DNA from: Candidatus Undinarchaeota archaeon
GTDB taxonomy: Archaea; SpSt-1190; JASMDC01
NCBI GenBank assembly: GCA_964519305.1
Contig: CAZFHY010000001.1
Coordinates: forward strand, 1 to 64,000
Direction: 5' to 3'
DNA: 64,000 bases
Part shown: in pieces, positions 15,301 through 47,994 of the stretch
Numbering within the stretch: the stretch's first letter is position 1
Layout of the letters: the number at the start of each line of letters is the position of its first letter
The notes under the pieces: model-generated
The model's database searches: none
Told to the model about the DNA's origin: nothing
What the model saw: the letters and a program-made list of their open reading frames with translations, nothing else
Made by a program: the position numbers and the translations under genes

Positions 15301-15757
15301 CGTGGCGGTCGTGTGGTTGCGGAACCTTCTCACGGTCCCATTCTCGGGCAATATCGTGGTGAGAGTGGTGAAGGAGGACGGTACGACCACCGCGTCCCAG
15401 GAGGTCTGGGCCACGGATGAACGGATGCTGGACCGGGGTGATGAGTCGACGGTCCAGATGGAGGCCTTCGGTGTTGAGCCACCGACCGTGTACGGCCTCT
15501 GGGTGACCGCCACTGACGACACAGGAGGCATATGGCTCGATGAGGTCGTGAACGTCGAGACGTTCCCCCACGCCCGTCTGGCCGTGGCTTCACGTGATCC
15601 GTCGGGGACCGGCTCGTCAATCGACACGGTCATAGGGATAGGCTCGTGCCAGCTCAGGGTGACCTGTGAAGGTTGTTCATCCCTGTGCGAACTGCATGTG
15701 AACCCGCAGACGTGCGCGCTCGAACCGTATAATTGTGACTGTGACTGCATATATTAG
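9332..15757 (+). CDS. Giant secreted Cys-rich protein 1 (Gly-rich beta repeats, Kazal-type module, helical and Ig-like C-terminal regions)
   Basis: Signal peptide; DGxYxLxDGT repeats; CTCDGTYEPVCGTDGRTYINRC at 12098-12208; ends NCDCDCIY; no C-terminal TM. Confidence 0.85.
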   Translation: MVRDPILAVILATVLMTVTGLGAIECINKEYAPPCDSIDCDAPGWRLPTVGFDDNGATTISTGTVTANVGPDQVMRGLVIDGGEVKVDIGQEGVDHVMLVTDTGNRIKVAKDGSVDIEDGSYTLTDGTPIQVVGGRMRLTEPQVFSSGNVDVTIDNEGVEWITMRTDEGNQVTVMADGDTTFDDGTYRLLDGTEVRIEGGSVQLPSSMDFSSDDRTVSVSVGNNGLDGFVIVPPGGGSIRIDDDGDLRADDGVYTIDGRTVRTVDGRLPSGTITLGPDASFNLDYDVADRFSGRFDGPAGAITFRDGRPSGRLDLSRDGQDFVLDLDRGDGSFSFTGPDGDVATSFDRRGVVGGTIDMGGGAHITMGQGPLGGNMAIDMNVDGQHITFDPHHGPSGKIAANKDGANYAIDLERGAGHVSLADGTFDMSFDAPRGMIDGTININEDGVNADIDLTGAGPRGRIDFGENGGVTFGPNGFNGQFSTGDGDGGIDFQMGPNGLSVTGDADGNQFDFGLGPNGFTGGMNLGGDKGGGGGKGFDIGQLGKVLGSFPMQGGGQASFTPQGTQLQYGPSTVNLNNGAISTGTTPPDTGTGTGADTGQDTGQEGGGEKGMNVCTPRLLSKPQTAGGGGPPMDPSLTDCDPKRTATNQREHVDKLVNDFNRANQYYSTMLANLESIRKGFEQWCQNCQKATQDFIQKRYMPCGGKLAMNPTPAKVAADPSFRPEICGESVKTLCAPDNKETAECTANTKPLDNAKACPLCLTLNCVYGDKCEIGFPNNKGAGKEQKPKEPPKEEEGGGEKGSEDDEKAKSEACGAQSEQQPPGGQQPPGGQQPPGGQQPPGGQQPPGGQQPPGGQQPPGGQQPGGGGLPFDPSSLIPKEEEKEDEPEPTPPPTPEPETDEPLDEVPPEEDPLEEQDENVESSCTCDGTYEPVCGTDGRTYINRCIAGCFKVEVAHDAACDEWCETDADCIPERCCATETKCVCVANRCQRGFRAEMAPVTTMARSLSLGAGFGGFLPASDASWDELVRRPARGGLEGADSGGDASKCLKEEEQKNACNSNGQEDSFEEKVKEDGKNSEDLGVKGCETKGAGPQCTKAADCKKCSTCTKCSKGGCNNCKQKVKQAETPKGKVKEKGACPKHLCCGPGFKCQDRNKVTCTKCGTTKNRKDRITCQLETHTCSYVTQATLVTKKTQNSLPSPGGVQECAQNVADLKDVCTVEGSEVLGGNTLDPCAVSMQLGMIIGQLQDLVTRMGASSNELKSISSRLGAEHSQGFSDRKTDDIKGSVSEIGQVLGGAQADVTFQNRLANFIKLFQDQKFRSDITANANHPAPKFTMETKAEGSPAEGIWKGYCKEYDLCGKCQDQDTPAGCLAPTSKKSFKRINDDYRGRCDTPESKGAVTERSFDIWQNTAAIDNFAGISPEEDLFIDTADCYGYDALPKAEQQQPQQPQNDTQEEKPQEEEPKEEEKPEEEEEKPEEEEVPEEEEPLEEEPPEEEEESHPACTAACRTCFGIDRSHCHAHLGICVCEAGGRWMLTSQACEPEVIPDAEELSCCENLFGVGAESLDISSDEQCAGPTIKGATADRCAEGGGLCCKYRFQELSIDKHCGEIDPEDIDDCDDMCLAIFDRETADWCTERCPTIELSCEQECLRQGTDLACLEGCDPPSVHCMRICLDAHPDKDEACIRACKAAAPEGEATAELTRPGAENVAGQVFADGDEVEVGGIVNNTGKVPLVGTGRLSLVTLSDCACQGEGCACEEKLTLLKEFPVHLEPGEGLDIPTMATAIEGVGASVQTLVEVVDDEGNVLFSQRSPIAHIVDPGAITVRDAYFVGPGGRTAEAYPGTDLSGAVTLESVTYPVMVELSLMKGGSALDGSPASYTLTGPTGDNPLTTGAFTPTDEDIGAVIRIRVTVRDAGGAVLLERTLEEQGMDAEACGSEMTEWCLTELGKVRPSYPAAYAEVRRLRLYVKDAAFMNFDGRRIDTVYGSADIVAVVWLRNLLTVPFSGNIVVRVVKEDGTTTASQEVWATDERMLDRGDESTVQMEAFGVEPPTVYGLWVTATDDTGGIWLDEVVNVETFPHARLAVASRDPSGTGSSIDTVIGIGSCQLRVTCEGCSSLCELHVNPQTCALEPYNCDCDCIY
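11786..11926 (+). repeat. 18-bp coding tandem repeat, (QQPPGG)x7 plus a partial unit
   Basis: CAGCAGCCTCCCGGTGGA-type units with synonymous variation. Confidence 0.95.
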
Positions 15758-15764
15758 GGGGTAT

Positions 15765-18700
15765 TTGGTGGGAGCTGTCAATAGGCGGCGGAAGTGGTTC
15801 CGCGAAGCGGTGCTCAGCTGTGCCTTCAGCCTCCTCCTCCTTCTAGTACCGGCCCTAGGGCTGACGCAGTGCGTCAACCGTGATTACGGTCCGCCATGCC
15901 AGGGCCTTGATTGCTCCCCGGACCGCGCGGGTGAGCCCCCGAACGTACATCTCGACCTCGACGGTACAACGACCATCTCGGACGGCGTGGTCACCACGAC
16001 GGTCGGTCCCGACCGCACGGTCCGTGGGTTCATTATCGACGGGGGAGACGTCCGTGTGGACGTCGACCATGAGGGCGTGGACACCGTCATGCTCGCGACC
16101 GAGAGCGGCCACCGCATCCGTGTCGAACGTGACGGATCAGTCAATATCGAGGACGGTTCCTACGTGCTCACCGACGGCACCGCTATCCGCGTCGTGAACG
16201 GGCGTATGTCGCTCCTCGATCCCCAGACGTTCACATCGAGGGATGTGAGCGTCACCATCGGTAACAAGGGCATGGAGACGGTCGCCGTTGTGAGCGATGA
16301 GGAGAGGCGGATCGATGTCTCAGCGCACGGCGAGGCCACTTTCGAGGACGGTACATACCGGTTCATGGACGGCACCGAGGTGCGCATGGAAGGCGGGTCC
16401 CCACAGCTCCCTGTCGATATGGTGTTCACGAGCGATGACGGATCGGTCACTCTCTCCATCGGGAACAACGGACTCGGTGACGTACTGCTGGCGACGCCGG
16501 AGGGCGGTGAGGTGCGTCTCGGTCCGTCCGGCGAGCTCCAGGCCGCCGAAGGCAGCTACACACTGGACGGTGACCGTCGCTGGACGCTAGGGGGTACCCT
16601 CCCCGAGGGCACGCTCAGCCTTGGTGACGATGCATCGATGGAGATCGAGTACGACGTGGCCGACAACTTCGCCGGACGTGTGGAGACCCCCGCGGGCTCG
16701 TTATCATTTCAGGACGGTAAACCCACAGGCCGGCTCAAGCTAAGACGCGAGAGCAAGGAGTATATCGTGGAGCTCAAGGAGGGCGACGGCACGCTCGCGT
16801 TCTCAAAGGACGAAGAACAGTTCTTCACGGACTTCGACCGCCGCGGGATTATCGGTGGGACCCTGGACATGGGCGAAGGGACCAGCCTCCGTATGGAGCG
16901 GGGACCGTTGGGGAGGACCACCGTGCTCTCCATGGACGTCGGCGACCAGCAGCTCACCTTCGATGCCACGCGGGGACCGAGCGGCGCCTTGGCAATAAGC
17001 AAGGACGGTAACTCGTACGCGCTCGACCTGTCCGATGGTATCGGCAGCGTCCAGCTCTCTGACGGGGCGTTCGGCATGTCCTTCGATCCCAGCGGTCTGT
17101 CCGATGCATCGATCCAGATCAAGGACGATGTCACGGTTGACCTGGACCTCGACCGGGGTACCGGTGCGTTCGATGCAGGCATCGGGTACAAGGGTGGTGA
17201 CGTCCGGTTCAGTCCCGACGAAGGTTTCTCCGGGAGCTTCTCCTTCGGCGAGGGCGACGGGAAGGTCGACGTGGAAATGGGCAACGGCGGTATCGGCGTC
17301 ACAGGTGGTGGCGGTGGAGGCGGGGGCGGCCAGGGTTTCGACCTCGGTTTCGATCCTACCAAGGGTTTCACGGGTGGAATGGACTTCCCCGGCGGGAACG
17401 GGAACCTGCAGTTCGGTGGCGACGGCCTAACCGGTAACGTCAACACGCCATTCGGTACGGCCAAGTTCGGCCCCCAGGGCATCGACATGGGTTACGGTGG
17501 CGTTTTCAACATGAACGTCGCACCCGACGGTGCGATGACGCCCAGTCTTTCGACAGCGGCCGAGGGTGCCGGTGAATCAGCGACGAGCGGCAAAGCGACG
17601 AACATCTGCACCCCCCGCCTGCTAAAGGAGACCACCGTCAGCGGTGGTGGCGGGCCTCCTCTCGACCCATCCCTCACCGACTGTGACCTGAGCCAGACGG
17701 CAACCAATCTGCGCGAACATGCCGATAACCTCATCAACGACTTCACCCGGGCGATCGAGTACTACTCCGCCCTGGTCACCAATCTCGAGACCATGAAGGG
17801 CGGTTTCGACCAGTGGTGTTCGAACTGTATGCAATCGGTCTCAGGGTTCATGGCCAAGGGGTACGTACCCTGTGGCGGTAAGCTCGCACCACCGCTCACG
17901 CCCGCATCGATCGCTGCGGACCCCGGGTTCCGACCGACCATCTGTGCTGCAGCGGCGATGGAGAAGTGTCCGCCCGGAGCGGCGCAGACGGCCCAGTGCA
18001 CGGCATCGTCCATGCCCAATCCCCTGGCCAAGGCATGTCCCCTCTGCCTGACGCTCAACTGCGTGTACGGGCACGAGTGCAAGATAGGCTTCCCCAATCC
18101 CGCGGCTGCAGGATCATCGGCGCAGGGAGAAGCGGGCGGCGCCGCAGCCGCCCAGGGCGCGGGCGGCAAGGCCGCGTGCGGAGCACAAGGCGCGGCCGGT
18201 GCAGGAAGTCTGGGCGGGCTGGGTGACGCGCTCGGTGGGATCGGCGACGCCCTGGGCCAGGCCAAGAGCATGATGGACAAGGCCAAGAGCTTCATGCCCG
18301 GTGGCGGTCAGCCCGGAGGAGGTCAACCGGGCGGTGGACAGCCCGGAGGGGATCAGCCGGGAGGAGGTCAGCCCGGTGGTGGCCAGCCTGGAGGAGACCA
18401 ACCGTCCGGCGGTGAGCAGCAGCCACAACAGCCCGGATCGTCCGATAATCCCAACCCTACATGTTCCTGCAGCGCCGAGGAGGCTCCCGTCTGCGGTACA
18501 GATGGGCGGACCTACTTCAACCGCTGTCTGACAGGATGCTTCGGTATAGAGGTAGCGCACGAGGGAGAGTGCGAGACGTGGTGCAATACGGATGCGGACT
18601 GTATCCCCGACCGATGCTGCACGACCGACACCCGGTGCACGTGCGTCAACAACCGATGCCGCTCGGGCATGCGCGCGACGCTGGCGCCCCTGAGCACGAT

Positions 18701-21700
18701 CGCCCGGGCCACACCGATGACCGCAGGGTTCGGCGGTCTGTACAGCACGATCGTCGAGGAATGGCGGTCGCTCCCGGAACGGCCTGCCACTGTAGAGCTC
18801 CAGGGCGCAGGCCAGTGCATCCCATTCCAGGGCAAGACATCGTGCAACAGCGGTGGGGCACCGGATGTGTACGACGTACCCCCTCCCCCAATCGGCAGCA
18901 ACATGAACGACCTCGGCGTCAAGGGGTGCACCACCAAGGGCGCACCGCAGATGTGCTCGGTCCCCGACTGCATCAAGTGCCAGACGGACTGCCAGGGAAA
19001 ATGCAAGGAAACGGCCGGATGTCCGATGTGCAAGGCGCTCATCAAGGCTATCGAGGCGCCGAAGCGCAACCCGCCCATCATGGGGGCCTGCACGAACCAT
19101 CATTGCTGTGGCCCTCCCTTCAACTGCCAGGACATGAACAAACCGGTCGGTTGCCCGCCATGCAAGTTCTGTGGTGTGCCCCCGACCCCATGCATGTGGC
19201 TGGTAGCAGGTTGTGCTCCCGAGACCCACGACTGCGCCGACGTCACCCAGGCCACCCTGGTCACCAAGATGAAGCAGAACTCCATCCCGTCACCGGGCGG
19301 GGTCCGGGAATGTGAGCAGAACGTGGCGGACCTCAAGGACGTGTGCACCGTCGAGGGCTCTCCTGAACTGGCCTCCGGCATGCTCGATCCATGCGCGGTC
19401 GGAATGCAGCTCGGGATCGTCATCGGAGAGCTGCATGACCTCATCCAGCGCATGAGCCAGGCGGTCGGCACCCTCAGCCAGGTCTCAGGTCGGTTGGGTT
19501 TCGAGCACTCTCAAGGCTTCTCTGACCGCCAGGCGGCCACCATCGAGTCCAGCATCCAGGAGATCAGTTCCGTACTGGAGGGCGCGAGCGCCACAGTGGA
19601 CTTCCAGGTGCGTCTCGCCAACTTCGTCCGTCTCTCCCAGAACCAGGAGTTCAACAAGGACATCATGTCCGATGCCAGCTTCCAGGCCCCCAAGTTCGAC
19701 ATCCTGCCCAAGGCCGAGGGATCTCCCGCCCAGGGTATCTGGAGCGGCTACTGCACAAACTACGACCTTTGCGCCGCTTGCACGGACAAGCCCACTCCCG
19801 CGGGATGCCTGGGACGCACGTCAAAGACGAGCTACAAGCCCAACGACCTCGACTACCGGGGCAGGTGCATGTCCAAGCAGAGCTCATCATCCATCACCGA
19901 GCGCTCGTTCGACATCTGGCAGAACAAGGGCTCAGTCGACAACCTTGCTTCCATCGATGCCGAGGAGGACCTCTTCATCGACATGATGGACTGCTACAAG
20001 TACGACGCTCTGCCCCAGGCGGAGCAACCGCAGCCGCCCGGTGGTCAGCCGGGTGGCGGCCAGCCCGAGGAGGAACAGCCCGAGGACGAGATGCCGCCCC
20101 CCGAGGATGAGCCCGATGCCGGATGCGTGTCCGTGTGCAAGGGATGCTATGGTGTGGACAGGACACACTGCCACCAGCATCTTGGCGTCTGTGTCTGTGA
20201 GGCCGGGAAAAGGTGGTTCCTCACGTCGCGGTCGTGCGAGCCCGGCAGCGGAGTCAGTGATGACGACCTTGCCTGCTGCGCGCAGGCCTTCTCCGTGGGG
20301 GCCGAGGTCCCTGACACGACCTCCGGCGAGGTGTGCTCGGGTCCGGTAATCCGCGGGATCACCGTGGACCGTTGTATTGATGGTTCAGGACCATGCTGCA
20401 AGTACCGGTTCCAGGAGGTACCCTTGGCAGGTCTCTGCGATGCTCCCGACGACGGGGATGATACCGGGGAACCCGGCGATGAGCGCACGTGCGATGCTAC
20501 GTGCAAGACCATCCTTGACCGGGACACGGCCGAGTGGTGCGTCCGGCGATGCCCTGACGTGGAGCTTACCTGTGCCCAGGAATGCTTGCGAGGACCATCT
20601 TACACGGAATGTCTAGCCGACTGTTCGCCCGCTGCAGCGGACTGCATGACAAAGTGCATGGACGAGCCCGGGAGCAGTGAGAACTACTGTGTGCGCACCT
20701 GTACTGGGGAGTCGCCGTCGGGTGATGCCGAGGTCTTCGTGGGACGCCCCGGTGGCCCGTCCATCGCAGGCCAGGTGTTCGCCTCGGGAGATAGCGTGCA
20801 GGTGGGCGGTGTGGTCAACAACACCGGCGATATCCCAATAGAGGGCATGGGCCGTCTCTCCCTGGTCACCCTGACCGATTGCGATTGCGAGGGCGCGGGC
20901 TGTACGTGCAGGGAGGAGGTCAAGCTCCTCAAGGAGTTCCCCGTGCGGCTGCGACCCGGAGATGACCTCGAGATCGACGAAGTGTCCACTTTCCTTGAGC
21001 AGGCCGATACATCGGTACAGGTCCTTGTCGAGGTCGTGGACGAGGACGGAAGGGTCGTACTCTCCCGCCGCAGCTCCATATCTCATGTGGTGTCCCCCGG
21101 TGCGATCGCTGTGCGGGACGCTTACTTCGTCGGCCAGGGTGGGAGGACCGACAAGACCTATCCGGGCGCCTCAATCGCCGGCGCTGTGACCATCGAGTCG
21201 ATCGTCCATCCTATCACGGTCGTGGTCTCTCTGGTGAAGGGCGACCTCCAGGTCATCGGGACTTCGACGGCCTACACGCTCAACGAACCGACCGGCGATA
21301 AACCGCTCCTCTCGGACACCTACACGGTCCTTGACGGGGATGTCGGTAAGCTGCTCCGCATCCATGTCGTCGTCCGGGATTCGGGCGGTGCAGTGCTCCT
21401 TGACAGGACCCTTGATGAGCAGGGCATCAATACTGATGTATGCGGCAACGAGATGACCGAGTGGTGCCTCACCCAACTGGGGAAGGTGCGACCGAGCTAC
21501 CCTGCCGCTTTCGCGGAGGTGCGCAGGCTGCAGCTCGAAGTGCGGGACGCCGCTTTCATGAACTTCGGCGGACGTCGTATCAGTACCGTGTACGGTTCGA
21601 CCGATATGGTCGCCATCGTGTGGTTGCGGAACCCGCTCACCGTCCCGTTCTCAGGGCAGGTCATCGTACGCGTGGTGAAGGAGGATGGTACCACCGCTGC

Positions 21701-22064
21701 GCGTAAGGAGCTCTGGATGACCGATGGACGGGTCCTTGACCGCGGCGACGAGGAAGTCGTTCAGGTGGATGCCTTCAGCGTCGAGCCGCCCACTGTCTAC
21801 AGCCTGTGGGTGACCGCCCAGGACAACGATGGGAGGAGCTGGCTCGACGATGTGGTGAACGTTGGTACGTTCCCTAACGCGCGGCTCTCCGCAGCGACAC
21901 GGGACCCCTCGTCACCCGGGACGTCCATCGACACGGTGATAGGAATCGACTCGTGCCAGCTCAGGGTGTCCTGCAAGGGCTGTTCGCCACTGTGCGAGTT
22001 GCACGTGAATCCGCGGACCTGCGTCCTCAAGCCTTATAACTGCGATTGTGAGTGTATCTATTAG
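15765..22064 (+). CDS. Giant secreted Cys-rich protein 2
   Basis: Colinear paralog of 9332; Kazal CGTDGRTYFNRC at 18462-18573; ends NCDCECIY. Start TTG 15765 or GTG 15768 after GGGGG. Confidence 0.85.
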   Translation: MVGAVNRRRKWFREAVLSCAFSLLLLLVPALGLTQCVNRDYGPPCQGLDCSPDRAGEPPNVHLDLDGTTTISDGVVTTTVGPDRTVRGFIIDGGDVRVDVDHEGVDTVMLATESGHRIRVERDGSVNIEDGSYVLTDGTAIRVVNGRMSLLDPQTFTSRDVSVTIGNKGMETVAVVSDEERRIDVSAHGEATFEDGTYRFMDGTEVRMEGGSPQLPVDMVFTSDDGSVTLSIGNNGLGDVLLATPEGGEVRLGPSGELQAAEGSYTLDGDRRWTLGGTLPEGTLSLGDDASMEIEYDVADNFAGRVETPAGSLSFQDGKPTGRLKLRRESKEYIVELKEGDGTLAFSKDEEQFFTDFDRRGIIGGTLDMGEGTSLRMERGPLGRTTVLSMDVGDQQLTFDATRGPSGALAISKDGNSYALDLSDGIGSVQLSDGAFGMSFDPSGLSDASIQIKDDVTVDLDLDRGTGAFDAGIGYKGGDVRFSPDEGFSGSFSFGEGDGKVDVEMGNGGIGVTGGGGGGGGGQGFDLGFDPTKGFTGGMDFPGGNGNLQFGGDGLTGNVNTPFGTAKFGPQGIDMGYGGVFNMNVAPDGAMTPSLSTAAEGAGESATSGKATNICTPRLLKETTVSGGGGPPLDPSLTDCDLSQTATNLREHADNLINDFTRAIEYYSALVTNLETMKGGFDQWCSNCMQSVSGFMAKGYVPCGGKLAPPLTPASIAADPGFRPTICAAAAMEKCPPGAAQTAQCTASSMPNPLAKACPLCLTLNCVYGHECKIGFPNPAAAGSSAQGEAGGAAAAQGAGGKAACGAQGAAGAGSLGGLGDALGGIGDALGQAKSMMDKAKSFMPGGGQPGGGQPGGGQPGGDQPGGGQPGGGQPGGDQPSGGEQQPQQPGSSDNPNPTCSCSAEEAPVCGTDGRTYFNRCLTGCFGIEVAHEGECETWCNTDADCIPDRCCTTDTRCTCVNNRCRSGMRATLAPLSTIARATPMTAGFGGLYSTIVEEWRSLPERPATVELQGAGQCIPFQGKTSCNSGGAPDVYDVPPPPIGSNMNDLGVKGCTTKGAPQMCSVPDCIKCQTDCQGKCKETAGCPMCKALIKAIEAPKRNPPIMGACTNHHCCGPPFNCQDMNKPVGCPPCKFCGVPPTPCMWLVAGCAPETHDCADVTQATLVTKMKQNSIPSPGGVRECEQNVADLKDVCTVEGSPELASGMLDPCAVGMQLGIVIGELHDLIQRMSQAVGTLSQVSGRLGFEHSQGFSDRQAATIESSIQEISSVLEGASATVDFQVRLANFVRLSQNQEFNKDIMSDASFQAPKFDILPKAEGSPAQGIWSGYCTNYDLCAACTDKPTPAGCLGRTSKTSYKPNDLDYRGRCMSKQSSSSITERSFDIWQNKGSVDNLASIDAEEDLFIDMMDCYKYDALPQAEQPQPPGGQPGGGQPEEEQPEDEMPPPEDEPDAGCVSVCKGCYGVDRTHCHQHLGVCVCEAGKRWFLTSRSCEPGSGVSDDDLACCAQAFSVGAEVPDTTSGEVCSGPVIRGITVDRCIDGSGPCCKYRFQEVPLAGLCDAPDDGDDTGEPGDERTCDATCKTILDRDTAEWCVRRCPDVELTCAQECLRGPSYTECLADCSPAAADCMTKCMDEPGSSENYCVRTCTGESPSGDAEVFVGRPGGPSIAGQVFASGDSVQVGGVVNNTGDIPIEGMGRLSLVTLTDCDCEGAGCTCREEVKLLKEFPVRLRPGDDLEIDEVSTFLEQADTSVQVLVEVVDEDGRVVLSRRSSISHVVSPGAIAVRDAYFVGQGGRTDKTYPGASIAGAVTIESIVHPITVVVSLVKGDLQVIGTSTAYTLNEPTGDKPLLSDTYTVLDGDVGKLLRIHVVVRDSGGAVLLDRTLDEQGINTDVCGNEMTEWCLTQLGKVRPSYPAAFAEVRRLQLEVRDAAFMNFGGRRISTVYGSTDMVAIVWLRNPLTVPFSGQVIVRVVKEDGTTAARKELWMTDGRVLDRGDEEVVQVDAFSVEPPTVYSLWVTAQDNDGRSWLDDVVNVGTFPNARLSAATRDPSSPGTSIDTVIGIDSCQLRVSCKGCSPLCELHVNPRTCVLKPYNCDCECIY
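18297..18415 (+). repeat. 15-bp coding tandem repeat, (PGG[G/D]Q)x7
   Basis: PGGGQ/PGGDQ units at the position equivalent to the QQPPGG repeat of paralog 1. Confidence 0.9.
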
Positions 22065-22074
22065 GGGGCATCTG

Positions 22075-25000
22075 ATGGTATACGGTATGACGGGACGGAG
22101 CATGGAGGTGAGGGTCATATCGGCCTGTCTCCTCGCGCTCATCCTGCTCGCCCCATCAGCCCTCGGCATCCGTCAGTGCGTGAACCGCGAGTACGCACCA
22201 TCGTGCCAGGGTGTCGATTGCGCTCCTGTGGAGCTGGGGACCCCGCCGGACCTTACCTGGAACGATGATGGATCGACCGTTATCACTACCGCCGACGAGG
22301 TGATCACAACACAAGTGGGGGCCGATCGCATCATGCGCGGTCTCATTATCGACGGTGGGGACATCCGCGTCGACGTTGGCGAGGACGGTGTCCTTTCCCT
22401 GGACCTGGTGACCTCTGACGGTCGACGTATCACGGTCAAACGGGACGGGAGCGTGAACCTTGAGGACGGCACCTACACGCTAACTGACAATACCACCATA
22501 CGCGTTGTCAACGGGAAGATGCACCTCACAGAACCCCAGGTGTTCACATCGCGCAACGTCAACGTCACCATAGGCAACAAGGGTATCGAGCAGATCACGG
22601 CGGTCACTGAAGAAGGCCATGTGGTACGCATCGCGCCGGACGGTGAAGTGACGTTCGACCACGGTTCCTACTGGCTCATGGACGGAACGGAGGTACGTAT
22701 CGAGGGGCGTAACGTCATCCTACCTGAAGTGCGGACCTACTCATCGTCCGACGGTCTTGTAACCGTCACGATTGGTAACAATGGTTTCGAGACACTGCTG
22801 CTCAAGCCCGCTGATGGCGGCGAGGTGCGTATCAACGCCGACGGTGATCTCAAGGCGGCGGCGGGCGACTATGTCATGGACGACGGACCCTATTACTCTC
22901 CGGGTGGGAAGCTCCCCGAGGGCGAGCTTTCACTAGGCCCCGATGCGACCCTGGAGGTATTGTACGACGTGTCCGACCGGTTCGCGGGCACATTGCGTAC
23001 ACCAGCAGGAACGCTGGTATTCAAGGATGGACGTCCCTCGGGTAGGCTCGAACTCGTCACCAAGGACCATACAGAGACGCTCACGTTCGAGGCGGGGACC
23101 GCTCTCGTGCATGCTCTCGAGGACAGACTGGCGGCCATCCTGGAACAAGCCCTCCACGAGACCGCCGATGAGATGGCACAGCACGGCGGGTACACTCTTG
23201 ACAACATCCCCGAGTCGAACCTCGACGATGTCCCCATTCTCTTCAACAGAGGGAAGATAACCAACGTCCCCTCATCGGATGCGATGGAGCAGATGCTCGT
23301 CCGGGGAGTCAAGCGACGTGTCGAGGACAGGATGATCGAGGTACGCCGCCAGCTCAGCGGGAGGGCCGATGCCGGTACGCCCGATATCGAGGTCGACCTT
23401 GATACCAACGAGATCACCGCGATGCTGGTGCTCCCCCTGAAGATCGAAGGCAATACTGAGCTCCCCTCGAGCGTCCCTGTACGGACGTCCGTCCCGCTCA
23501 GGCTCAAGCTCCTTCGTGACCGTCTCGCCCTGTACCTGAGCACGTACGTCGATGGGCGCGCCATGGAGCATGCGCTCTACCAGGCCCTCGTCGCGGACGA
23601 GCGGATCCCGGCACCTCCCGGCGGTGTCGCCGAGATCTCCGAGTGCGACCAGGGTGAGGTGCTCGCCACCATCGGCGACATCGCGCGCCCCGTGGGCGAG
23701 AACATCCATATCACGGTGAACGAGGAGCTCGTGCGCGTGGACCGGACAGCGTCGCTCACCACCGACTCCGTCGGATGGGAGATGGTGCCTGTGGATAAAG
23801 GGGCCCAGCTCTCCCTTCTGGCCAACGAGGGCGTCAAGGATTACGAGAGCCGTGTGGTCATCGCAATGGTGCCCGTCCCCATGGCGATGGGCGAATCCTG
23901 CATGGGTAAGTACTTCGTCGAGTACGATATCAGCTTCCCGGTGAGCGCCAGCGTCAGCGACCACTCGCCCGCGTTCCAGGTCAGGCACGGCGATCCGGCC
24001 AGACCCGAGAAGCGTCCGCTCACCCTCCGGTTCGTCATGGTACCGTTCATTCAGGGTGATGACGTCAATGCTCTAGATGAAGAGGTGTCCGGTCCAGAGG
24101 AAGCGAAGGACCTGTGCTCAGGCAAATGCTCGGTCCACCTGACCGTCCCGGACTCTGGTTCGGGCACAGTATGGATCGGCCCATGCAGCTTCGAGTACAC
24201 CGGTGGTCGCATCGACCTGGAGAATACCCCGTGCGGCGACCATGAGCTCATCGTCGAGCCGGACGAGTTCGAACTGGACCGTCACCGGGGTCGCGTTTCC
24301 GTGAGCGACGTGCACCGGGCAGAGGTGACCCTTCCGCCCCGGAGTGCCGGTCTTGAGCGGCCTAGCGCGGTCACCGTCGACCTTGAGCAGGGTGACGGCC
24401 TCATATCGTTCACGACGGGTGTGGGAAGCTTTTCCACGACCTTCGATGCCCGCGGCGTCATCGGTGGGACCGTGAGCGTCGGTGGGGGCGCGAACGTCCA
24501 GGTCGGACGGGGTCCTTTGGGCAGGAACCTGGCCCAGACCCTGAACGTCGGAGGCCAACAGTTGTCCTTCGACGTGCAGAACGGCATCAGCGGCACTCTC
24601 GGAGTGAACAAGGGCGGCAACTCGTACACGCTCGACGTCCTCAGCGGCGTCGGGGCCGTCCAGATGACCACCGGGCCCTTCGACATGGCGTTCAACACAG
24701 CGGGTCTCGCCGACGCCTCCATCCAGGTGGGCGGCGATACCACCCTCAACATGAACCTCAATCCCGCCACGGGCAATTTCGGTGTGGGCATCGGATTCGA
24801 GGGGGCCAATATCAACTTCGATCCCACGGCCGGCTTCTCAGGTGGTTTCGGTTTCGAGGCCGGGGGCGGTCAGTTCGGCGTCAACCTCGGTGGCCAAGGT
24901 CTCGGTCTCACAGCCAACGTGGGAGGAGAGAACTGGAACGTCGGGTTCAACGACGGCGCGTTCACCGGAGGCATCGGCTTCGGAGGTGGCAACGGTGCCA

Positions 25001-28000
25001 TCAACATCGACCTGGGCGGTGCTGTGACCGGCTCGTTCAACACGCCCTTCGGTACCGCGAACATGGGCCTCACCGGCGATGGCGTGACGCTCGGGTTCGG
25101 TACGTTCGACATGAACATCGGCCTGGACGGCGCCTTCACGAGCAACCTGGCAGAGGGGCTGCAGAACCTGGGCCAGAACATCGTCGACGGGGTAAAAGGC
25201 CTTGTCGAGGACGCGCTATCGGGCAAGCTCACTAACATCTGCAAACCACGTCTCCTTAGCGAGACACAGGTCAGTGGCGCAGGTGGACCGTTCCTCGACC
25301 CAATGCTCACCGACTGCGACCTCGGGCGCACGGCCGACAACCTTCACGAGCATATCAATAACATCATCGTTGATTACGAGAACGCGGTCGAATACCACAC
25401 GACACTCGTGGAGAACCTCGAGTCCCTCAGTGGCGGGTTCGAGGAATGGTGCGGTAACTGCGAGTCTTCCATCAGCGGGTTCATGGCCAAGGGCTACCTG
25501 CCCTGTGGCGGAAAGCTCTCCATGAAGCCGACCCCCAGCAAGGTCGCCTCCGATTCCGGGTTCAAGCCCGAGATCTGTGCCATATCGGTACTCGCGCTGT
25601 GCGCTCCACAGAACCCGCTCACCGCATGGTGCACCGCGGCCTCGTTCCCGAGCCCGCTCGGACTGGCCTGCCCACTATGCCTCACCCTGGACTGCGTGTA
25701 CGGCTCGCAGTGCATGATAGGGTTCCCCAACCCGAAGGCAGCCGCTGCCGCCGCTACCGCTGCAGGGACGGCGGCCAAGGGCGCGGGCAAGGCCATGATC
25801 GGCGGTGTCGCCGGAGCGGCCTCGTGCGCTGCCCAGAGCGCCATGGGAGGTGGAGGTGGCGGCGGAGCGCCCCAGCCACCAGAGGAGCCCCCACTCAATG
25901 AGATGATGCCTGAGGAGGAGTACGATAGGCTGACGCCCGATGTGCTGCAGCAGCTGAACGACCAGCCGCGTAACGGTACATGTATATGCGACGGCTCCGG
26001 CGGACAGGTATGCGGCACGGACGGTCGCACCTACATCAGCAGGTGCGTCGCCGAATGCTTCGAGGTATCGGTCGCCCGGGACGGCGCTTGCGAGGAATGG
26101 TGCACCACCGATGCCGACTGCGTCCCCGACGCCTGCTGCGACACCGTGACGGCCTGCTCGTGCGTTGACAACCGCTGTGTCGGCCCTGAGGACTCGGCAC
26201 CGGACCCGTGGACACCACCGACGGTCACGACCATCGTGGAAGAGGACGAATGGGACCCGTCCGAGATAACCTTGGACCCGGTGGAGGAAGGGGTCACCGT
26301 GGACGAGGGCAACGCCGGGATCCCCATGGAGGTCTGGGAGGAGGCTATCCCCGACATGGGCGGCGGAGGCGGAGACGGTGATGACGGCGGCGGGGGCGGG
26401 GACGGCCCCGGTGTCAGTGTCACCGTGAACATACCCATTGGCGAGATTGGCAACCTCGGCCAGCTCGGCGGCGGGCTTGGGAAGCTCGGCGACGGTCTCG
26501 GAAAGATCGGTGATGGTCTCAGCGCCGTCACCAAACCCGTCCAGGACCTCGCCCAGGGCGTACAGAACGCCGTCGACACGGTGACCAAGCCCGTCACGGA
26601 CGCCGTACAGGGAGTGCAGGACGCTATCGATCAAGGTATCGAGAACATGGGCGATGCCATCACCGGCGGTACTGGTGACCTCTCTAGCATGACCGGCGAG
26701 GCCGGTGGGGAGGCCGGCGGAGAGGCCGGACAGCAGGGCGATGAGGACCCGGGTGTCTGCCTGCCGTTCAAGGGTAAGATGGCCTGTAACAGCATGGGCG
26801 CCCCGGCCGTATACGACGTCCCCCCGGTGCCTATCGGTGCCCCGGTCATGGACCTGGGCGTCAAGGGCTGCATCACCCAGGGCGCGCCCATCACTTGCTC
26901 GATGCCCGACTGTATCGCCTGTCAGACGGAGTGTCTCCCCATGTGCGCGGACGAGCCCGGGTGCCCGGTGTGCCGGGGCCTCATGCAGGCCACCGAGATA
27001 CCCAGACGCGTGCCATCCATACCCGGTGCGTGCACCAACAACCACTGCTGCGGCATGCCGTACTCCTGCATCGATTGGAACATGCCCGATGCCTGCGAGA
27101 TACCATGCGGCTGGTGCGGCCCGGTCCCCTGTATCTGGAAAGCGGCCACATGCCTCCCCGAGATGCACGACTGCTCCGATGTCACCCAGGCCACCCTGGT
27201 GACCAAGAAGAAGCTCAACTCCATCCCGTCGCCCGGCGGTGTCTCAGAGTGCTCACAGAACGTGGCCGACCTCAAGGACGTGTGCACGGTCGAGGGCTCC
27301 AAGGAGCTACAATCGGGAACCCTGGACCCGTGCGAGGTCCAGGAGAAGCTCGACGTCGTCATCGAGGAGCTGCACGACCTGATCGACCGCATGAGCCAGG
27401 CGATCGAAGAGCTCTACGACGTGTCCGACCAGCTGGACTACGAGCACTCACAGGGATTCACCGACCGACGCTCGGCCACAATCAAGGAGACGCTCAAGCG
27501 CATCACCGACATCCTCGAGGGCTCCAAGGCCGACAAGGACTTCCAGGTGCGTCTGGCCAACTTCGTGCGGTTCTTCCAGAGCGACGACCTCCGGGGGGAC
27601 ATCTCCGAGAACGAGCAGCTCACCGCTGCCATGTTCGGTGTGCTGCCCTACGCCGAGGGAGTACCGGGCATGGCCATGTGGATGGGCTACTGCATGGACT
27701 TCCAGCTCTGCGGCGGGTGCTCGGGAGGTGCCGTCCAAGCAGGGTGCCTCGGCCCCACGTCCGTCGGCAGCTACCTGCCCAACATCCTCGACTTCAGGGG
27801 TAGGTGCATGTCGCTGCCCGCGGCCACAGTGGTCAACGAGCGCAGCTTCGACATGTGGGGCGACACGAGCGCACTGGACAACTTCGCCAACATCGATGCC
27901 GAGGAGGACCTGTTCATCGACACCCTGAAATGCTACAAGTACGACTCTGAGAGCACCGGATGGGAGAACCGGACGAGCGGGGAGGGCATCCCGTACGAAG

Positions 28001-29964
28001 AGGGCATGGATACTCCCGGCGGGGAGGGGATCCCTCCTGAGTGCGCTGCTGCCTGTCATGAGTGCTACGGGATCAATCTGGCGCACTGCCACTCCCACCT
28101 CGCCCTCTGCGTGTGCGAGGCCGATGACAGGGAGATCCTCACGTCCCAGTCCTGCGAGCCCGGGGTAGCTGTGAGCGAGGATATGCTCGGATGCTGCGAG
28201 CGGCTTCTCTCGGTGGGAGCGGAGAGCCTCGACAGTCCAGGTGGCGAGCTGTGCACGGGTCCGGTCCTTAAGGGCGTCACGGTCGACCTCTGCTCGGACG
28301 GTTCCGGCCTATGCTGCAAGCACCGGTTCGATGAGGTCCCTCTGGAGGGCAACTGCGAGGCCATAGAGGAGGCCGGGATCGGTACGTGCGAGGACATGTG
28401 CATGGACGTCTTCGACCGTGAGACCGCCGACTGGTGCGCCGAGCGTTGTCCGGCGATCGACATCTCCTGCGAGTCAGCATGCCTCGGGACAGAGGTGGAC
28501 ACGGAGTGCCTGAGCGAGTGCGTCCCGCAGCGACCCCTCTCGTGCATGGAGGACTGCATGGCGGAGCACGAGGGCCAGGAGGCCGAGTGTGTCCGGGCGT
28601 GCAAGGCCGTCTCGCCACGAGCGGACGTGGACGGGTACGTCGGTCGTTCGAAGGCGCCCGATGTACCGGGACAGGTGTTCACCGCCGGGGACGCGGTCGT
28701 CGCTGGCGCCGTGGTGAACAACACAGGTGAGATCCCTCTCATCGGTACGGCCCGCCTCTCCCTTGTCACCCTCTCGGACTGCTCGTGCTCGGGCAGCGAC
28801 TGCACCTGTGATGAGGAGATGCAGCTGGTCCGGGAGATACCAGTACGGCTCGGCCCGGGCCGGTCCATGACGATCCCGGCGCTCCCTGTGGACGTGGGCC
28901 GCGAGGATGTGTCGGTCCAGACGCTCGTCGAGATCCTGGACGAGAACGGGAACGTCATCGTATCCCAGCGCGGTCCCATCTCGCACGTGGTCTCTCCGGG
29001 CGCTGTGACCGTCCGTGACGCCTACATCGTCGCACCGGGCGGCAGGACGACCGAGGTGTACCCCGGCGCCGATGTCCATGGCGCCGTTACCATCGAGTCG
29101 AAGGCCTATCCCGTGGACCTCGAGGTCTCGCTGGTCATGGGTAGCACCACCGCCGCCGGTTCGAAAGCTTCGTTCACGCTCGCCGGCCCCACCCTCGACC
29201 GCGCCGTGGCCAGCGGTTCCTACACGGTAAAGGACGCTGACCTCGGGAAGGTGCTCCGGGTGCACGTCAAACTGACCGATAGCGCCGGTGTCGTGCTCCT
29301 CGAAGAGACCCTCGCCGAGCAGGGCATGACCACTGACACCTGCAGCGACGAGATGACAGAGTACTGCCTATCGAACATCGGGAATGTGAAGCCGAGCTAT
29401 CCCCTCGCCCATGCAGAGGTGCGACCGTTGACCCTAACGGTCCGGGACGCTGCCTTCATGAGCCTGGGGGCCCGGCCCATCGCCGCCATGTTCGGACGGG
29501 CGGACGTTGTGGCCATCGCCTGGGTCCGGAACATGCTTTCCGTCCCCTTCGACGGGCGCATCGAGGTCGAGGTCGTGCGGGAAGGCGGCACCGCTATCGC
29601 CACCAAGGAGACCTGGGCCACCGGGGACCGGATACTCGAACGTGGTGACGAGGTCGCAATCCAGGTCGAGACGTTCGGTGTTGAACCCGGTAACGTCTAC
29701 TCGTTGCATGTGTTCGCTGAGGACGGGGGGGGCAGGGTCTGGTTGGACGAGGTGCTCACGGATACGGTCTTCCCGAACGCGTGTCTGAACGTCGAATCAC
29801 GTGATCCGTCCGCTTCGGGTGGCGATATCAATACAGTGATCACCATCGGCAACTGCAGGCTCAGAGTAGAGTGCGCGGGATGCTCGTCACTTTGCGAGCT
29901 CCACGTCGATCCGTCCGACTGTTCGCTCAAACCGACGAACTGCGACTGCGAATGCGTTTATTGA
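22075..29964 (+). CDS. Giant secreted Cys-rich protein 3 with an internal pilin-like domain
   Basis: Paralog of 9332/15765; Kazal CGTDGRTYISRC at 25981-26091; ~430-aa insertion (EMAQHGGY...RGKITNVPS) homologous to the 2750/7528/36982 family. Start 22075 or 22102. Confidence 0.85.
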   Translation: MVYGMTGRSMEVRVISACLLALILLAPSALGIRQCVNREYAPSCQGVDCAPVELGTPPDLTWNDDGSTVITTADEVITTQVGADRIMRGLIIDGGDIRVDVGEDGVLSLDLVTSDGRRITVKRDGSVNLEDGTYTLTDNTTIRVVNGKMHLTEPQVFTSRNVNVTIGNKGIEQITAVTEEGHVVRIAPDGEVTFDHGSYWLMDGTEVRIEGRNVILPEVRTYSSSDGLVTVTIGNNGFETLLLKPADGGEVRINADGDLKAAAGDYVMDDGPYYSPGGKLPEGELSLGPDATLEVLYDVSDRFAGTLRTPAGTLVFKDGRPSGRLELVTKDHTETLTFEAGTALVHALEDRLAAILEQALHETADEMAQHGGYTLDNIPESNLDDVPILFNRGKITNVPSSDAMEQMLVRGVKRRVEDRMIEVRRQLSGRADAGTPDIEVDLDTNEITAMLVLPLKIEGNTELPSSVPVRTSVPLRLKLLRDRLALYLSTYVDGRAMEHALYQALVADERIPAPPGGVAEISECDQGEVLATIGDIARPVGENIHITVNEELVRVDRTASLTTDSVGWEMVPVDKGAQLSLLANEGVKDYESRVVIAMVPVPMAMGESCMGKYFVEYDISFPVSASVSDHSPAFQVRHGDPARPEKRPLTLRFVMVPFIQGDDVNALDEEVSGPEEAKDLCSGKCSVHLTVPDSGSGTVWIGPCSFEYTGGRIDLENTPCGDHELIVEPDEFELDRHRGRVSVSDVHRAEVTLPPRSAGLERPSAVTVDLEQGDGLISFTTGVGSFSTTFDARGVIGGTVSVGGGANVQVGRGPLGRNLAQTLNVGGQQLSFDVQNGISGTLGVNKGGNSYTLDVLSGVGAVQMTTGPFDMAFNTAGLADASIQVGGDTTLNMNLNPATGNFGVGIGFEGANINFDPTAGFSGGFGFEAGGGQFGVNLGGQGLGLTANVGGENWNVGFNDGAFTGGIGFGGGNGAINIDLGGAVTGSFNTPFGTANMGLTGDGVTLGFGTFDMNIGLDGAFTSNLAEGLQNLGQNIVDGVKGLVEDALSGKLTNICKPRLLSETQVSGAGGPFLDPMLTDCDLGRTADNLHEHINNIIVDYENAVEYHTTLVENLESLSGGFEEWCGNCESSISGFMAKGYLPCGGKLSMKPTPSKVASDSGFKPEICAISVLALCAPQNPLTAWCTAASFPSPLGLACPLCLTLDCVYGSQCMIGFPNPKAAAAAATAAGTAAKGAGKAMIGGVAGAASCAAQSAMGGGGGGGAPQPPEEPPLNEMMPEEEYDRLTPDVLQQLNDQPRNGTCICDGSGGQVCGTDGRTYISRCVAECFEVSVARDGACEEWCTTDADCVPDACCDTVTACSCVDNRCVGPEDSAPDPWTPPTVTTIVEEDEWDPSEITLDPVEEGVTVDEGNAGIPMEVWEEAIPDMGGGGGDGDDGGGGGDGPGVSVTVNIPIGEIGNLGQLGGGLGKLGDGLGKIGDGLSAVTKPVQDLAQGVQNAVDTVTKPVTDAVQGVQDAIDQGIENMGDAITGGTGDLSSMTGEAGGEAGGEAGQQGDEDPGVCLPFKGKMACNSMGAPAVYDVPPVPIGAPVMDLGVKGCITQGAPITCSMPDCIACQTECLPMCADEPGCPVCRGLMQATEIPRRVPSIPGACTNNHCCGMPYSCIDWNMPDACEIPCGWCGPVPCIWKAATCLPEMHDCSDVTQATLVTKKKLNSIPSPGGVSECSQNVADLKDVCTVEGSKELQSGTLDPCEVQEKLDVVIEELHDLIDRMSQAIEELYDVSDQLDYEHSQGFTDRRSATIKETLKRITDILEGSKADKDFQVRLANFVRFFQSDDLRGDISENEQLTAAMFGVLPYAEGVPGMAMWMGYCMDFQLCGGCSGGAVQAGCLGPTSVGSYLPNILDFRGRCMSLPAATVVNERSFDMWGDTSALDNFANIDAEEDLFIDTLKCYKYDSESTGWENRTSGEGIPYEEGMDTPGGEGIPPECAAACHECYGINLAHCHSHLALCVCEADDREILTSQSCEPGVAVSEDMLGCCERLLSVGAESLDSPGGELCTGPVLKGVTVDLCSDGSGLCCKHRFDEVPLEGNCEAIEEAGIGTCEDMCMDVFDRETADWCAERCPAIDISCESACLGTEVDTECLSECVPQRPLSCMEDCMAEHEGQEAECVRACKAVSPRADVDGYVGRSKAPDVPGQVFTAGDAVVAGAVVNNTGEIPLIGTARLSLVTLSDCSCSGSDCTCDEEMQLVREIPVRLGPGRSMTIPALPVDVGREDVSVQTLVEILDENGNVIVSQRGPISHVVSPGAVTVRDAYIVAPGGRTTEVYPGADVHGAVTIESKAYPVDLEVSLVMGSTTAAGSKASFTLAGPTLDRAVASGSYTVKDADLGKVLRVHVKLTDSAGVVLLEETLAEQGMTTDTCSDEMTEYCLSNIGNVKPSYPLAHAEVRPLTLTVRDAAFMSLGARPIAAMFGRADVVAIAWVRNMLSVPFDGRIEVEVVREGGTAIATKETWATGDRILERGDEVAIQVETFGVEPGNVYSLHVFAEDGGGRVWLDEVLTDTVFPNACLNVESRDPSASGGDINTVITIGNCRLRVECAGCSSLCELHVDPSDCSLKPTNCDCECVY

Positions 29965-36982: not shown

Positions 36983-38850
36983 TGGTCGAGCGCACACGAG
37001 GTCAGATGGCTCTCATCGGGCTCGCGGCGGTAGCACTGGTAGTCATCATGATCGTTTACATGATGAGCGGTAGCCGCAGGACCGAGACCGAGATCAATAT
37101 CAAGGACATCGAGTCCGCCGGCCTCAAGAGCGAGCTGGAGAAGGTGGAGAGCATCGTTACCGATATCTTCGAGGAGTCGATCCACTCCTCTGCGCTCGAG
37201 CTGGCACGTCATGGTGGGTATGCCCGCGGCAATGTACCGCCCCGCAATCTCGGGCTCACGCCGTACTGGTTCTACAAGGGGAACATCATCAACATCCCCT
37301 CGGTAGAGGTCATGACGGGCATGATGAAGGAGCGTATGGAATGGCGCATCCAGAACGATCTCAATGACCTGCGCAAGAACCTGCGGATGGACATGTTCCA
37401 CATCGGCCAGCCACGGGTCACCGTCACTCTCACCGATGTCCAGATCAACGCTGACCTGGAGCTACCTATCGAGGTAGTGCAGGGCGAGAACAAGGTCAAG
37501 ACCAAGATCGAGTTCACTCACACGGCACAACTACGTCTCAAGCTGTTACGCGACCTGGCCGAGAAGTACGTGCGTAATTACGCTGAAGTGCGTTACATGG
37601 AGCAGCAGTGGATGCACGGCGTCAACAACGATCCGCGGGTACCTAACACCCACGGTGCCGAGCCGGACGCGACGGGTCCCTGTACGACCTGCCAGGTCGT
37701 CAAGTACACGAAGCCGGGTATGACCTCAGCACTGCAGGAGCACGCTCAGCTCCACTCGTCAATGGAGCTCCAGCGTGCACGCAACCTACCTTTCTTCCAG
37801 AAGGACGCCAGTGGCGATCAGGTCAAGGACATCCAGCTCGACTTCAAGGCCAATGAGAAGGACCTCGAGTTCGAGTTCACCGCGAATCCGGGCGAGGCCT
37901 GCGAGAGCAACACCGAGGTATACCTCATCGAGCAGGGCAACACGGGCAGTGCGCCCATGGGCTCGTGCCAACATATGACCGTGACCTCCTATGACCTGTT
38001 CATGTTCCCGGTGGAGATCATCATCAGGGACCTGCTCAAGATCGGCATGGTCATGACCACAGAGACGGCCGAGACGACGACGGACCAGGACGGCAGCGCG
38101 ACAAAGAGCGTCGTCAAGCCCCTTGAGTTCCATATCGCCCTGAACTCCTACTTCACGACCGGTGATCCCAAGGCAGTGGACGGCTCTGTCAACGATCCTG
38201 AGACCGTCGATAACCTTTGTCAGGGAGCCTGCTCTATCGACATAAAGGCTACAAATGTCAACGAGGGCATGCTGTTCATCGACTCGTGCGAGTACGGGCC
38301 CGGCAACCACTTCACTGAGGCCAACGTACCCTGCGGTATCCACACCATCACGTTCAAGTCCATCGATCCCGCGGGCAAGGCCAAGTGGGTGAAGAGGGAC
38401 CCCATCACGGACAACTACCAGCTCGAGATCGAGGTCCAGGACTATGCATCGGTGAAGGGCACCATCAACATGAAGAACAAGGTGTACTGCACCCAGTCCA
38501 AGCGCGTGGAGGACAAGGGCCTCGAGACACTGGCGTACTACGAGGGCGATCCGCCTCGGACGATCAGGCTGTTCTTCTACCCCGTCAACCACAGGCTGGG
38601 AGAGATGGTGCATGCCGACATCGACGAGAACGGTGCCTACGAGGTCCCCGTTATCAATCCCGGGACATATCTGGTGCTTGCCTTCCCCACCGAGGACGCC
38701 TCACACCGCCCTACGCACAAGGTGCTGCCAAAGGGCCTGGTGATGGACATCGAGCCAGGTACTAACGACCTGAACATCGAGCTGGAGCCCATGCGCGTGG
38801 AGAAGGTCGGCGACAAGTACGTCAACGTGGTCGGAACCGAGGACTGTTAG
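36982..38850 (+). CDS. Large pilin-like protein 3
   Basis: RTRG|QMALIGLAAVALVVIMIVY; TGATG overlap; ELARHGGY...PYWFYKG; ends TEDC. Confidence 0.75.
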   Translation: MVERTRGQMALIGLAAVALVVIMIVYMMSGSRRTETEINIKDIESAGLKSELEKVESIVTDIFEESIHSSALELARHGGYARGNVPPRNLGLTPYWFYKGNIINIPSVEVMTGMMKERMEWRIQNDLNDLRKNLRMDMFHIGQPRVTVTLTDVQINADLELPIEVVQGENKVKTKIEFTHTAQLRLKLLRDLAEKYVRNYAEVRYMEQQWMHGVNNDPRVPNTHGAEPDATGPCTTCQVVKYTKPGMTSALQEHAQLHSSMELQRARNLPFFQKDASGDQVKDIQLDFKANEKDLEFEFTANPGEACESNTEVYLIEQGNTGSAPMGSCQHMTVTSYDLFMFPVEIIIRDLLKIGMVMTTETAETTTDQDGSATKSVVKPLEFHIALNSYFTTGDPKAVDGSVNDPETVDNLCQGACSIDIKATNVNEGMLFIDSCEYGPGNHFTEANVPCGIHTITFKSIDPAGKAKWVKRDPITDNYQLEIEVQDYASVKGTINMKNKVYCTQSKRVEDKGLETLAYYEGDPPRTIRLFFYPVNHRLGEMVHADIDENGAYEVPVINPGTYLVLAFPTEDASHRPTHKVLPKGLVMDIEPGTNDLNIELEPMRVEKVGDKYVNVVGTEDC

Positions 38851-44673: not shown

Positions 44674-44699
44674 CCTATCACAACACCACAGCGGGTATC

Positions 44700-44707
44700 T
44701 TTATATC
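44700..44707. promoter_or_regulatory. TATA box midway between divergent operons
   Basis: TTTATATC about 25 nt from both TTG 44673 (-) and ATG 44731 (+) in a 57-bp gap. Confidence 0.55.
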
Positions 44708-44730
44708 TCTTGCACGAAAGGAAGCCCCTG

Positions 44731-46677: not shown

Positions 46678-46689
46678 GGGCCCAATCGC

Positions 46690-47967: not shown

Positions 47968-47994
47968 TATGAGATAGCAACTTTCGGCGACGAG

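Follow-up and report, generated by a model that had tools for sequence, protein, structure and literature searches.

A copy of the head of a pilin-like protein family built in frame into a giant cysteine-rich protein of an undinarchaeal genome

Pilins carrying modules grafted on for display, PF13620 (CarboxypepD_reg) among them, have been described, and a class III signal is defined as a short hydrophilic leader, the last residue of which is Gly or Ala, followed by ca. 20 mainly hydrophobic residues (PMC8179133). Type IVb minor pilins with secreted partners are represented by CofB-CofJ (PMC6048534) and TcpB-TcpF (PMC9565799, PMC10120004), and the large non-pilin adhesin PilC/PilY1 is displayed by a minor-pilin complex (bioRxiv 10.64898/2026.09.18.752573). 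In this study, we analysed 64,000 nucleotides (nt) from a Candidatus Undinarchaeota archaeon (contig CAZFHY010000001.1 of assembly GCA_964519305.1, positions 1 to 64,000 of the forward strand; hereafter, the window), which encode three giant cysteine-rich proteins (giants 1 to 3) and three free members of a family of ca. 600-amino acid (aa) proteins (P0004, P0005 and P0006; Table 1). The subject of this report is a stretch of giant 3 that is homologous to the free proteins. The literature searched contained no giant non-pilin protein with a pilin-like head built in, and nothing was found there on the ca. 600-aa family or on the giant 3 fusion.

When the three giants were aligned, residues 337-776 of giant 3 stood opposite 8 residues in giants 1 and 2, a net gain of ca. 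432 aa. An earlier note, made from the letters of the DNA, had described this extra in-frame stretch as a pilin-like domain at 23060-24365, which the alignment-based positions (23056-24375) match to ca. 10 nt. The short paralogous stretches quoted in it were found as GRLDLSRDGQDFVLDLDRGDG in giant 1 and GRLKLRRESKEYIVELKEGDG in giant 2, and all eight motifs by which it had linked the stretch to the free proteins were present, by eye, in the giant 3 translation: ETADEMAQHGGY, RGKITNVPS, VPLRLKLLRD, RIPAPPG, LLANEG, KYFVEYDISFPV, DLCSGKCSV, and PCGDHELIVEPD. The alignment of the stretch (hereafter, the insert) with the free proteins was significant. In BLASTP, giant 3 matched P0005, the free copy of highest identity, with 39% over 422 columns (E 1e-101), P0004 with 33% (E 9e-64), and P0006 with 26% (E 8e-35). 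No match with E <= 1e-3 was obtained for the three pairs of giant 1 or 2 and a free protein that were tried (P0002 with P0004, P0002 with P0005, and P0003 with P0005). A profile built from 33 free proteins was searched against 820 stop-to-stop open reading frames (ORFs) from the window and from four loci of a second genome described below. This free-only profile matched giant 3 at its positions 8-416 with an E value of 2e-116 (384.6 bits), the highest profile position matched by any hit being 417, and it identified exactly four head copies in the window, namely the three free ones and the insert. Among 1.84 billion representative proteins, the best match of the insert had an E value of 1e-93.

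The counterpart of the insert was residues ca. 44-478 of P0005, and the last ca. 130 residues of P0005 had none. As the earlier note had observed, the insert is without the class III-like signal and membrane helix and without the last domain, which was seen in the alignment and in both structure models. Within the core span (insert residues 32-387), 34 columns were strongly conserved, i.e. the same in at least 80% of 30 free proteins, and the insert retained 32 of them, including six Cys; the two losses were A150->L and F317->L. The insert is part of the architecture of the ca. 600-aa family, its head, and not a whole member. What giant 3 contains in frame is the extracellular head of these proteins in full length, from the long helix through the alpha/beta domain to the first beta-sandwich.

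The structure models agreed with this division. The AlphaFold2 model of P0005 (pLDDT 86.8, alignment of 32 rows) consisted of a helix at 2-43, a low-confidence break at 36-46, a helix at 48-78, an alpha/beta domain at 95-372, an all-beta domain at 397-464, and a last all-beta domain at 470-600. In a pilin fold, an antiparallel sheet packs against the second half of a long N-terminal helix; the model showed the order of elements, with strands after the helices 2-43 and 48-78. The model of giant 3 residues 1-1060 (pLDDT 62.4), calculated from an alignment of 13 rows trimmed by DNA reference, contained a folded insert at 350-765. In blocks of 10 residues, the mean pLDDT of the insert was 64-92, except for two blocks (43 and 46) at the 675-687 loop. 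Its elements followed those of P0005 in the same order, with an offset of ca. 300 residues (H48-78, E95-100, H110-135 ... E459-464 in P0005; H350-378, E395-400, H410-436 ... E755-759 in giant 3). The insertion site separates a beta-rich N-terminal module, which has repeated DG.Y.L.DG motifs, from a beta module rich in glycine (24.5% Gly). The junction stretches, 297-350 and 765-793, were checked for a beta-hairpin site, and both had a pLDDT below 50, as a flexible linker might have. A Foldseek search of the PDB with the N-terminal model of giant 3 gave TMq values of at most 0.09 (teneurin, Rhs, and DDB1), which are meaningless at a pLDDT of 62. As a side observation, the repeated DG.Y.L.DG and GRL motifs encoded at 22048-23076 and 24370-25227 (the N-terminal modules of giant 3), together with these very weak Foldseek matches to teneurin/Rhs shells, are reminiscent of YD repeats; this is a lead only, and no Pfam RHS match was found.

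A fused frame of this kind could be an artefact, in which a giant gene and a free pilin-like gene had been linked by a chimeric assembly or a frame error. Neither fused protein turned up in the protein collections searched, as such an artefact would have it. The frame is open on both sides of the insert, and there is no N anywhere in the window sequence. Since the insert is just 26-39% identical to each free copy of the window, it is not a misplaced copy of any of them. A profile scan of genome contigs, with a 4-row alignment as the query, gave four loci, all of them within one metagenome-assembled genome (MAG), Ca. Undinarchaeales archaeon ETNP3_MAG_31. Contig 29 of this independent assembly is syntenic with the window and has a 2640-aa open frame (L001, 8972-16894) that is the ortholog of giant 3 with the insert in the same place. 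The junctions are identical, and the alignment of the two inserts has no gap over 431 of 431 residues; their identity is 80.7%, as against 86-92% in the other five segments of giant 3. The giant 3 fusion is not an assembly chimera, and we give the artefact next to no credence. The insert is missing from the MAG orthologs of giants 1 and 2. Since it occurs at the same junctions in the window genome and the MAG, the insertion is older than their split; the copy was captured once, before that split, and has since kept its open reading frame without any indel and evolved under purifying selection. Separately, the MAG ortholog of P0004 is split over two frames, L002 5041-5403 (profile positions 2-43) and 5325-6899 (49-416), which indicates a frameshift or a sequencing error of that assembly.

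Between the window genome and the MAG, dS was ca. 0.4-0.55 across the giant 3 segments. The dN/dS of the insert was 0.24 (dS ca. 0.47), the highest of the six segments, and that of the remaining giant 3 was 0.09-0.15; the free heads gave 0.06 (P0005), 0.11 (P0004), and 0.20 (P0006). This relative laxity and the low-confidence junctions would suit a tolerated passenger, an insert that folds, has no function in giant 3, and persists in a permissive linker. However, a dN/dS of 0.24 is far below 1, the 431 codons have accumulated no indel and no stop at a dS of 0.47, and the highly conserved core columns, with all six conserved Cys, are kept but for two. We consider a passenger unlikely.

The origin of the insert was examined in a tree of 35 rows and 406 columns. 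The rows were the 2 inserts, the 7 free copies found in the window and the MAG, and 26 representatives of more than 500 aa; three fragments were excluded. Both inserts paired with a support of 100/100 on a stem of 1.15 within an unresolved polytomy, and in this tree neither was placed, with support, next to a paralog from its own genome. The approximately unbiased test did not reject a clade uniting the inserts and the P0005 group (p 0.274), and the tree gave no support for it. The insertion event is old. Since a domain of the family stands in frame in giant 3 without the signal helix or the last domain, a module has moved between two kinds of surface protein. The earlier note had spoken of domains shuffled within the locus; the sharing of a module by two kinds of surface protein bears this out, whereas the identity of 26-39% makes the transfer an old and not a recent one. 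Two origins were rejected. A recent duplication of the neighbouring P0005 does not agree with an identity of only 39%. An intein or a mobile element gave no Pfam match, and the junctions had no flanking direct repeats other than chance matches of 12-17 nt.

The ca. 600-aa family is rare. Only 29 matches with E <= 0.001 were obtained among the 1.84 billion representatives, 26 of 562-697 aa and three fragments of 295-373 aa; two of them (P0007 and P0022, the latter matching P0006) correspond to the window's own genes, and no giant or fused form was among the 29. The family profile had just two matches in a word-indexed protein collection, and a plasmid tblastn search for the family gave no match. 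Residues 300-820 of giant 3 had no match in a protein collection of 1450-4617 aa; since giant 3 itself was not returned, the giants are not part of that collection. The insert had no match among proteins of 756-2155 aa, which is weak evidence. The head had no match in Pfam, in NCBIfam, or in a profile search of PDB sequences, where only the last domain of the free proteins was reached (NOMO2, E 4e-5). Since no Pfam, PDB, or convincing Foldseek match was found, the head has no recognised relative. The last domain, which the earlier note had called CnaB-like, is indeed absent from the insert, and the name itself fared less well: SdrD_B matched 1 of 32 members, CarboxypepD_reg (PF13620) 7, and a NOMO transthyretin-like family 4. 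Judged from these profile matches, it is better called a CarboxypepD_reg/transthyretin-like domain.

A class III-like signal ([KR][GA]Q and a hydrophobic tract) was present in 23 of 30 free proteins, where it consists of a short basic leader with G or A as its last residue, a Q, and ca. 20 hydrophobic residues. Five of the seven proteins lacking the motif start within the hydrophobic tract, consistent with a late start call. In the window, all three free copies and no other gene have this signal, apart from an extra motif hit inside giant 3 at nt 25789. The free proteins thereby resemble the modular pilins PilB and PilC of Streptococcus sanguinis, in which a class III signal and a hydrophobic helix are followed by bulky modules, and PF13620, found here in the 7 members mentioned, is listed there as a grafted module (PMC8179133). 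Unlike in modular pilins, the graft is reversed here, a pilin-like head without its helix having entered a non-pilin giant. Unlike PilB and PilC, the family is archaeal, IPR012902 and the N-methyl motif are not applicable to it, and it matches no pilin profile. The label "pilin-like" of the earlier note, thus, holds as far as the signal is concerned and does not extend to a pilin profile or to a type IV pilin among the best 50 Foldseek matches.

The giants have a hydrophobic signal-like N-terminal segment, a cysteine-rich tail and, by eye, no C-terminal hydrophobic anchor. The genes of the ca. 925-aa proteins are coupled to those of the ca. 600-aa proteins by TGATG stop/start overlaps, and giant 1 starts 2 nt past the end of P0005 (a gap of 1 nt). 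The cassette of a ca. 925-aa protein, a ca. 600-aa protein, and a giant was found three times, in the window, on the syntenic MAG contig, and at a second MAG locus (L003, 6190-16277). At L003, the genes encode proteins of 300 aa, 925 aa (52% identical to the 924-aa protein of the window), and 604 aa, and then a giant-like protein of 1533 aa. The earlier note had placed the giants and the pilin-like proteins in one complex; it is only the conserved gene order that suggests they may act in one.

Type IV filament assembly genes are located at a distance of a few kb from the cassettes of the free proteins, and a CetZ gene downstream of P0006 is in the same part of the window as these T2SSE and T2SSF genes. 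The T2SSE and T2SSF Pfam models matched above their cut-offs, and the NCBIfam models for FlaI/TadA/BasE and ArlJ/UpsF/BasF all scored below theirs. Surface proteins with class III signals are also known from the Sulfolobus bindosome, where they are assembled by BasE and BasF. The window is comparable in that large non-filament surface proteins would use a class III signal together with a type IV filament-like ATPase and membrane protein. It differs in that the ATPase and one membrane protein matched the BasE and BasF models weakly and far below their cut-offs (110.7 against 1000 bits and 25.2 against 1300 bits), and in that, as far as tested, the heads do not have the fold of sugar-binding proteins. 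As a separate observation, the T2SSE ATPase (44461-46677) has a 4Fe-4S ferredoxin-type domain at residues ca. 94-120, with weak matches to Fe-S subunits up to ca. 220.

The following arrangement is proposed. The free proteins may be modular pilin-like surface proteins, whose membrane helix would anchor them or build them into a type IV filament and whose head would be a putative binding module. As the giants have a signal-like N-terminus and are without a membrane anchor, they would belong to the same surface apparatus, linked to the type IV filament. In giant 3, the head would do in cis the same binding job as the free heads, on a common partner or ligand, without the helix needed for entry into the filament; in giants 1 and 2, any head function would come in trans from the free proteins. 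Overall, the best explanation is that the giant 3 head is a working module within one surface apparatus with the free proteins, to which we give about an even chance.

In CofB-CofJ and TcpB-TcpF, a large minor pilin reportedly holds a secreted partner at the pilus tip. These systems share with the window a pilin-like protein of ca. 500-600 aa with extra beta domains that is encoded beside a secreted non-pilin, and theirs is the kind of trans arrangement proposed for the free proteins and the giants. They differ in that no sequence or fold match was found, and in that the proposed partners here are giants of 2100-2600 aa; those systems are not known to have a fused form. The giants would likewise resemble PilC/PilY1 as very large non-pilin proteins depending on pilin-like proteins for display. 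Unlike there, a whole pilin-like head is built into giant 3, and no homology was seen, without a test aimed at it.

Gene fusion of separate proteins is taken as a sign of interaction in Rosetta-stone inference, and the earlier note had classed giant 3 as such a fusion. The likeness consists in a domain that is separate elsewhere being fused into another protein of the same locus. Unlike in Rosetta-stone fusions, the free and fused forms are paralogs in one genome, and the copy was inserted inside the chain and not joined end to end. Because free and fused forms coexist in one genome, giant 3 is not a classical Rosetta-stone case. Adhesive modules are often reused on carriers that have no contact with each other, and promiscuous ones are known to give rise to false Rosetta-stone inference.

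The main rival to a shared apparatus is reuse of the module without contact, in which a general adhesive or ligand-binding head would sit on two unrelated carriers, and the neighbourhood would reflect co-regulation of surface proteins only. Both genomes have free forms in addition to the fused one, so that nothing has been replaced by the fusion, and the insert stands on its own long stem without supported nesting beside a free copy. Modules common to pilins and other adhesins are also widespread in print (PMC8179133). On the other hand, the order of the three genes is conserved in the three cassettes, the P0005 stop and the giant 1 start are separated by a single nucleotide, and the giants appear by eye to have no anchor of their own. 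We regard reuse without contact as somewhat doubtful, and as a possibility to be taken seriously.

Several observations weigh against the shared apparatus, and the first two of them speak for reuse. Only one of the three giants has the insert. Compared with the three free heads, the insert evolves faster than those of P0005 and P0004 and at a rate close to that of P0006, and given this faster evolution its job in giant 3 may have drifted from that of the free heads. The giant-like protein at L003 is without the N-terminal and glycine-rich modules and begins at about giant 1 residue 612. Neither a prepilin peptidase (A24) nor a small major pilin was found among the window ORFs scanned. No curated pilin or class III profile of Pfam or NCBIfam matched the free proteins at E <= 0.01, and their first 100 residues gave only chance-level matches at E values up to 10 (e.g. 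DUF7261, E 0.058). Foldseek of the whole P0005 model gave only tandem beta-sandwich (Ig/CnaB-like) proteins at low TM (TMq at most 0.19 in PDB and 0.18 in BFVD), with no type IV pilin among the best 50 matches. A more specific form of the shared apparatus was also considered, in which the heads are docking units of a new archaeal surface apparatus. Free heads would be anchored by the helix to a type IV filament, at its tip or its base, and would associate head to head or via the ca. 925-aa partner; they would thereby carry the anchorless cysteine-rich giants, and giant 3 would join the head assembly as a helix-less subunit. We hold this to be rather improbable.

The features of the window are listed in Table 1.

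Table 1. Positions of the giant genes, the parts of the insert, the free family members, and neighbouring genes in the window
Feature	Position	Strand	Basis or remark
P0004, free ca. 600-aa family member	2750..4564 (ORF 2714-4564)	+	start set at the ATG that yields MVTAEGYRRA as the leader, followed by Q; class III-like signal and membrane helix, head, C-terminal CarboxypepD_reg-like domain
924-aa (ca. 925-aa) protein upstream of P0005	4754..7528	+	signal-like N-terminus; without family match
P0005, free family member	7528..9330 (ORF 7522-9330)	+	ATG overlaps the stop of the upstream gene (TGATG)
Giant 1, 2141 aa, without insert	9332..15757	+	ORF and three-giant alignment
Giant 2, 2109 aa, without insert	15735..22064	+	ORF and three-giant alignment
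Giant 3, 2638 aa counted from the first GTG	22048..29964	+	single open frame
Insert, giant 3 residues 337-776	23056..24375	+	three-giant alignment; junction DNA read
Part of insert homologous to free ca. 600-aa proteins, residues 348-769	23089..24354	+	BLASTP and free-only profile
Long helix of insert, residues 350-378	23095..23181	+	corresponds to P0005 helix 48-78, next after the membrane helix; models
Alpha/beta head of insert, residues ca. 395-669	23230..24054	+	element order as in P0005 95-372; models
All-beta domain at insert end, residues ca. 694-759	24127..24324	+	corresponds to P0005 397-464; models
mtd and ftr, between giant 3 and the 937-aa gene	30596-32400		methanopterin-dependent C1 genes
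937-aa paralog of the 924-aa protein (31% identity), upstream partner of P0006	34169..36982	+	
P0006, free family member	36982..38850 (ORF 36973-38850)	+	ATG overlaps the stop of the upstream gene (TGATG)
T2SSE-type ATPase (N-terminal 4Fe-4S domain) and two T2SSF-domain membrane proteins	44461..48897	+	type IV filament assembly genes

Translation of giant 3 probably begins a few codons past the first GTG, at one of the ATGs there. Kazal-type protease-inhibitor domains, which to our knowledge are unusual in archaea, were found within giant 1 (12029-12331) and giant 3 (25900-26250). When the segments were scanned alone, they exceeded the Kazal_2 cut-off of 22.8 bits with scores of 30.9 and 25.7 bits, respectively, and the whole-protein scan missed both; the same motif was seen by eye in giant 2. 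Giants 1 and 2 also contain tandem DNA repeats with a period of 15-45 nt (11781-11919, 13692-13804, and 18296-18396), which encode PGGQQ-type and E/K/P-rich stretches and are prone to length variation and assembly error.

Elsewhere in the window, mtd and ftr directly after giant 3 were unexpected for Undinarchaeota, and the taxon label or the expectation may be off; the word "methanopterin" did not occur in the main text of the Undinarchaeota paper. Between cetZ and the filament genes, three ORFs on the minus strand at 40338-44673 (413, 670, and 521 aa as listed; the calls overlap) had no family match, and a signal-like segment is combined with a hydrophobic anchor at the C-terminus in two of them. 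Two adjacent proteins of ca. 460 aa (60795-62159 and 62175-63587, minus strand) are alike at their N- and C-terminal ends and belong to no Pfam family.

Domain reuse is common among surface proteins, the present case is known in two related genomes only, and the function of the head is a proposal. Modules grafted onto pilins were known already; the graft described here is the reverse one, of a pilin-like head into a giant, in an archaeon, and no such case was found in the literature searched. The fusion ties two wholly unannotated sets of proteins, the rare ca. 600-aa family and the giant cysteine-rich trio, to each other and to type IV filament genes. The helix-less head that occurs naturally in giant 3 (residues ca. 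344-774) marks the domain borders for a soluble construct, and the proposed arrangement provides a testable hypothesis for how an uncultivated archaeon may display giant surface proteins. If the heads were indeed docking units, the apparatus would be a device holding giant adhesins towards another cell, in a small-celled and possibly host-dependent archaeon.

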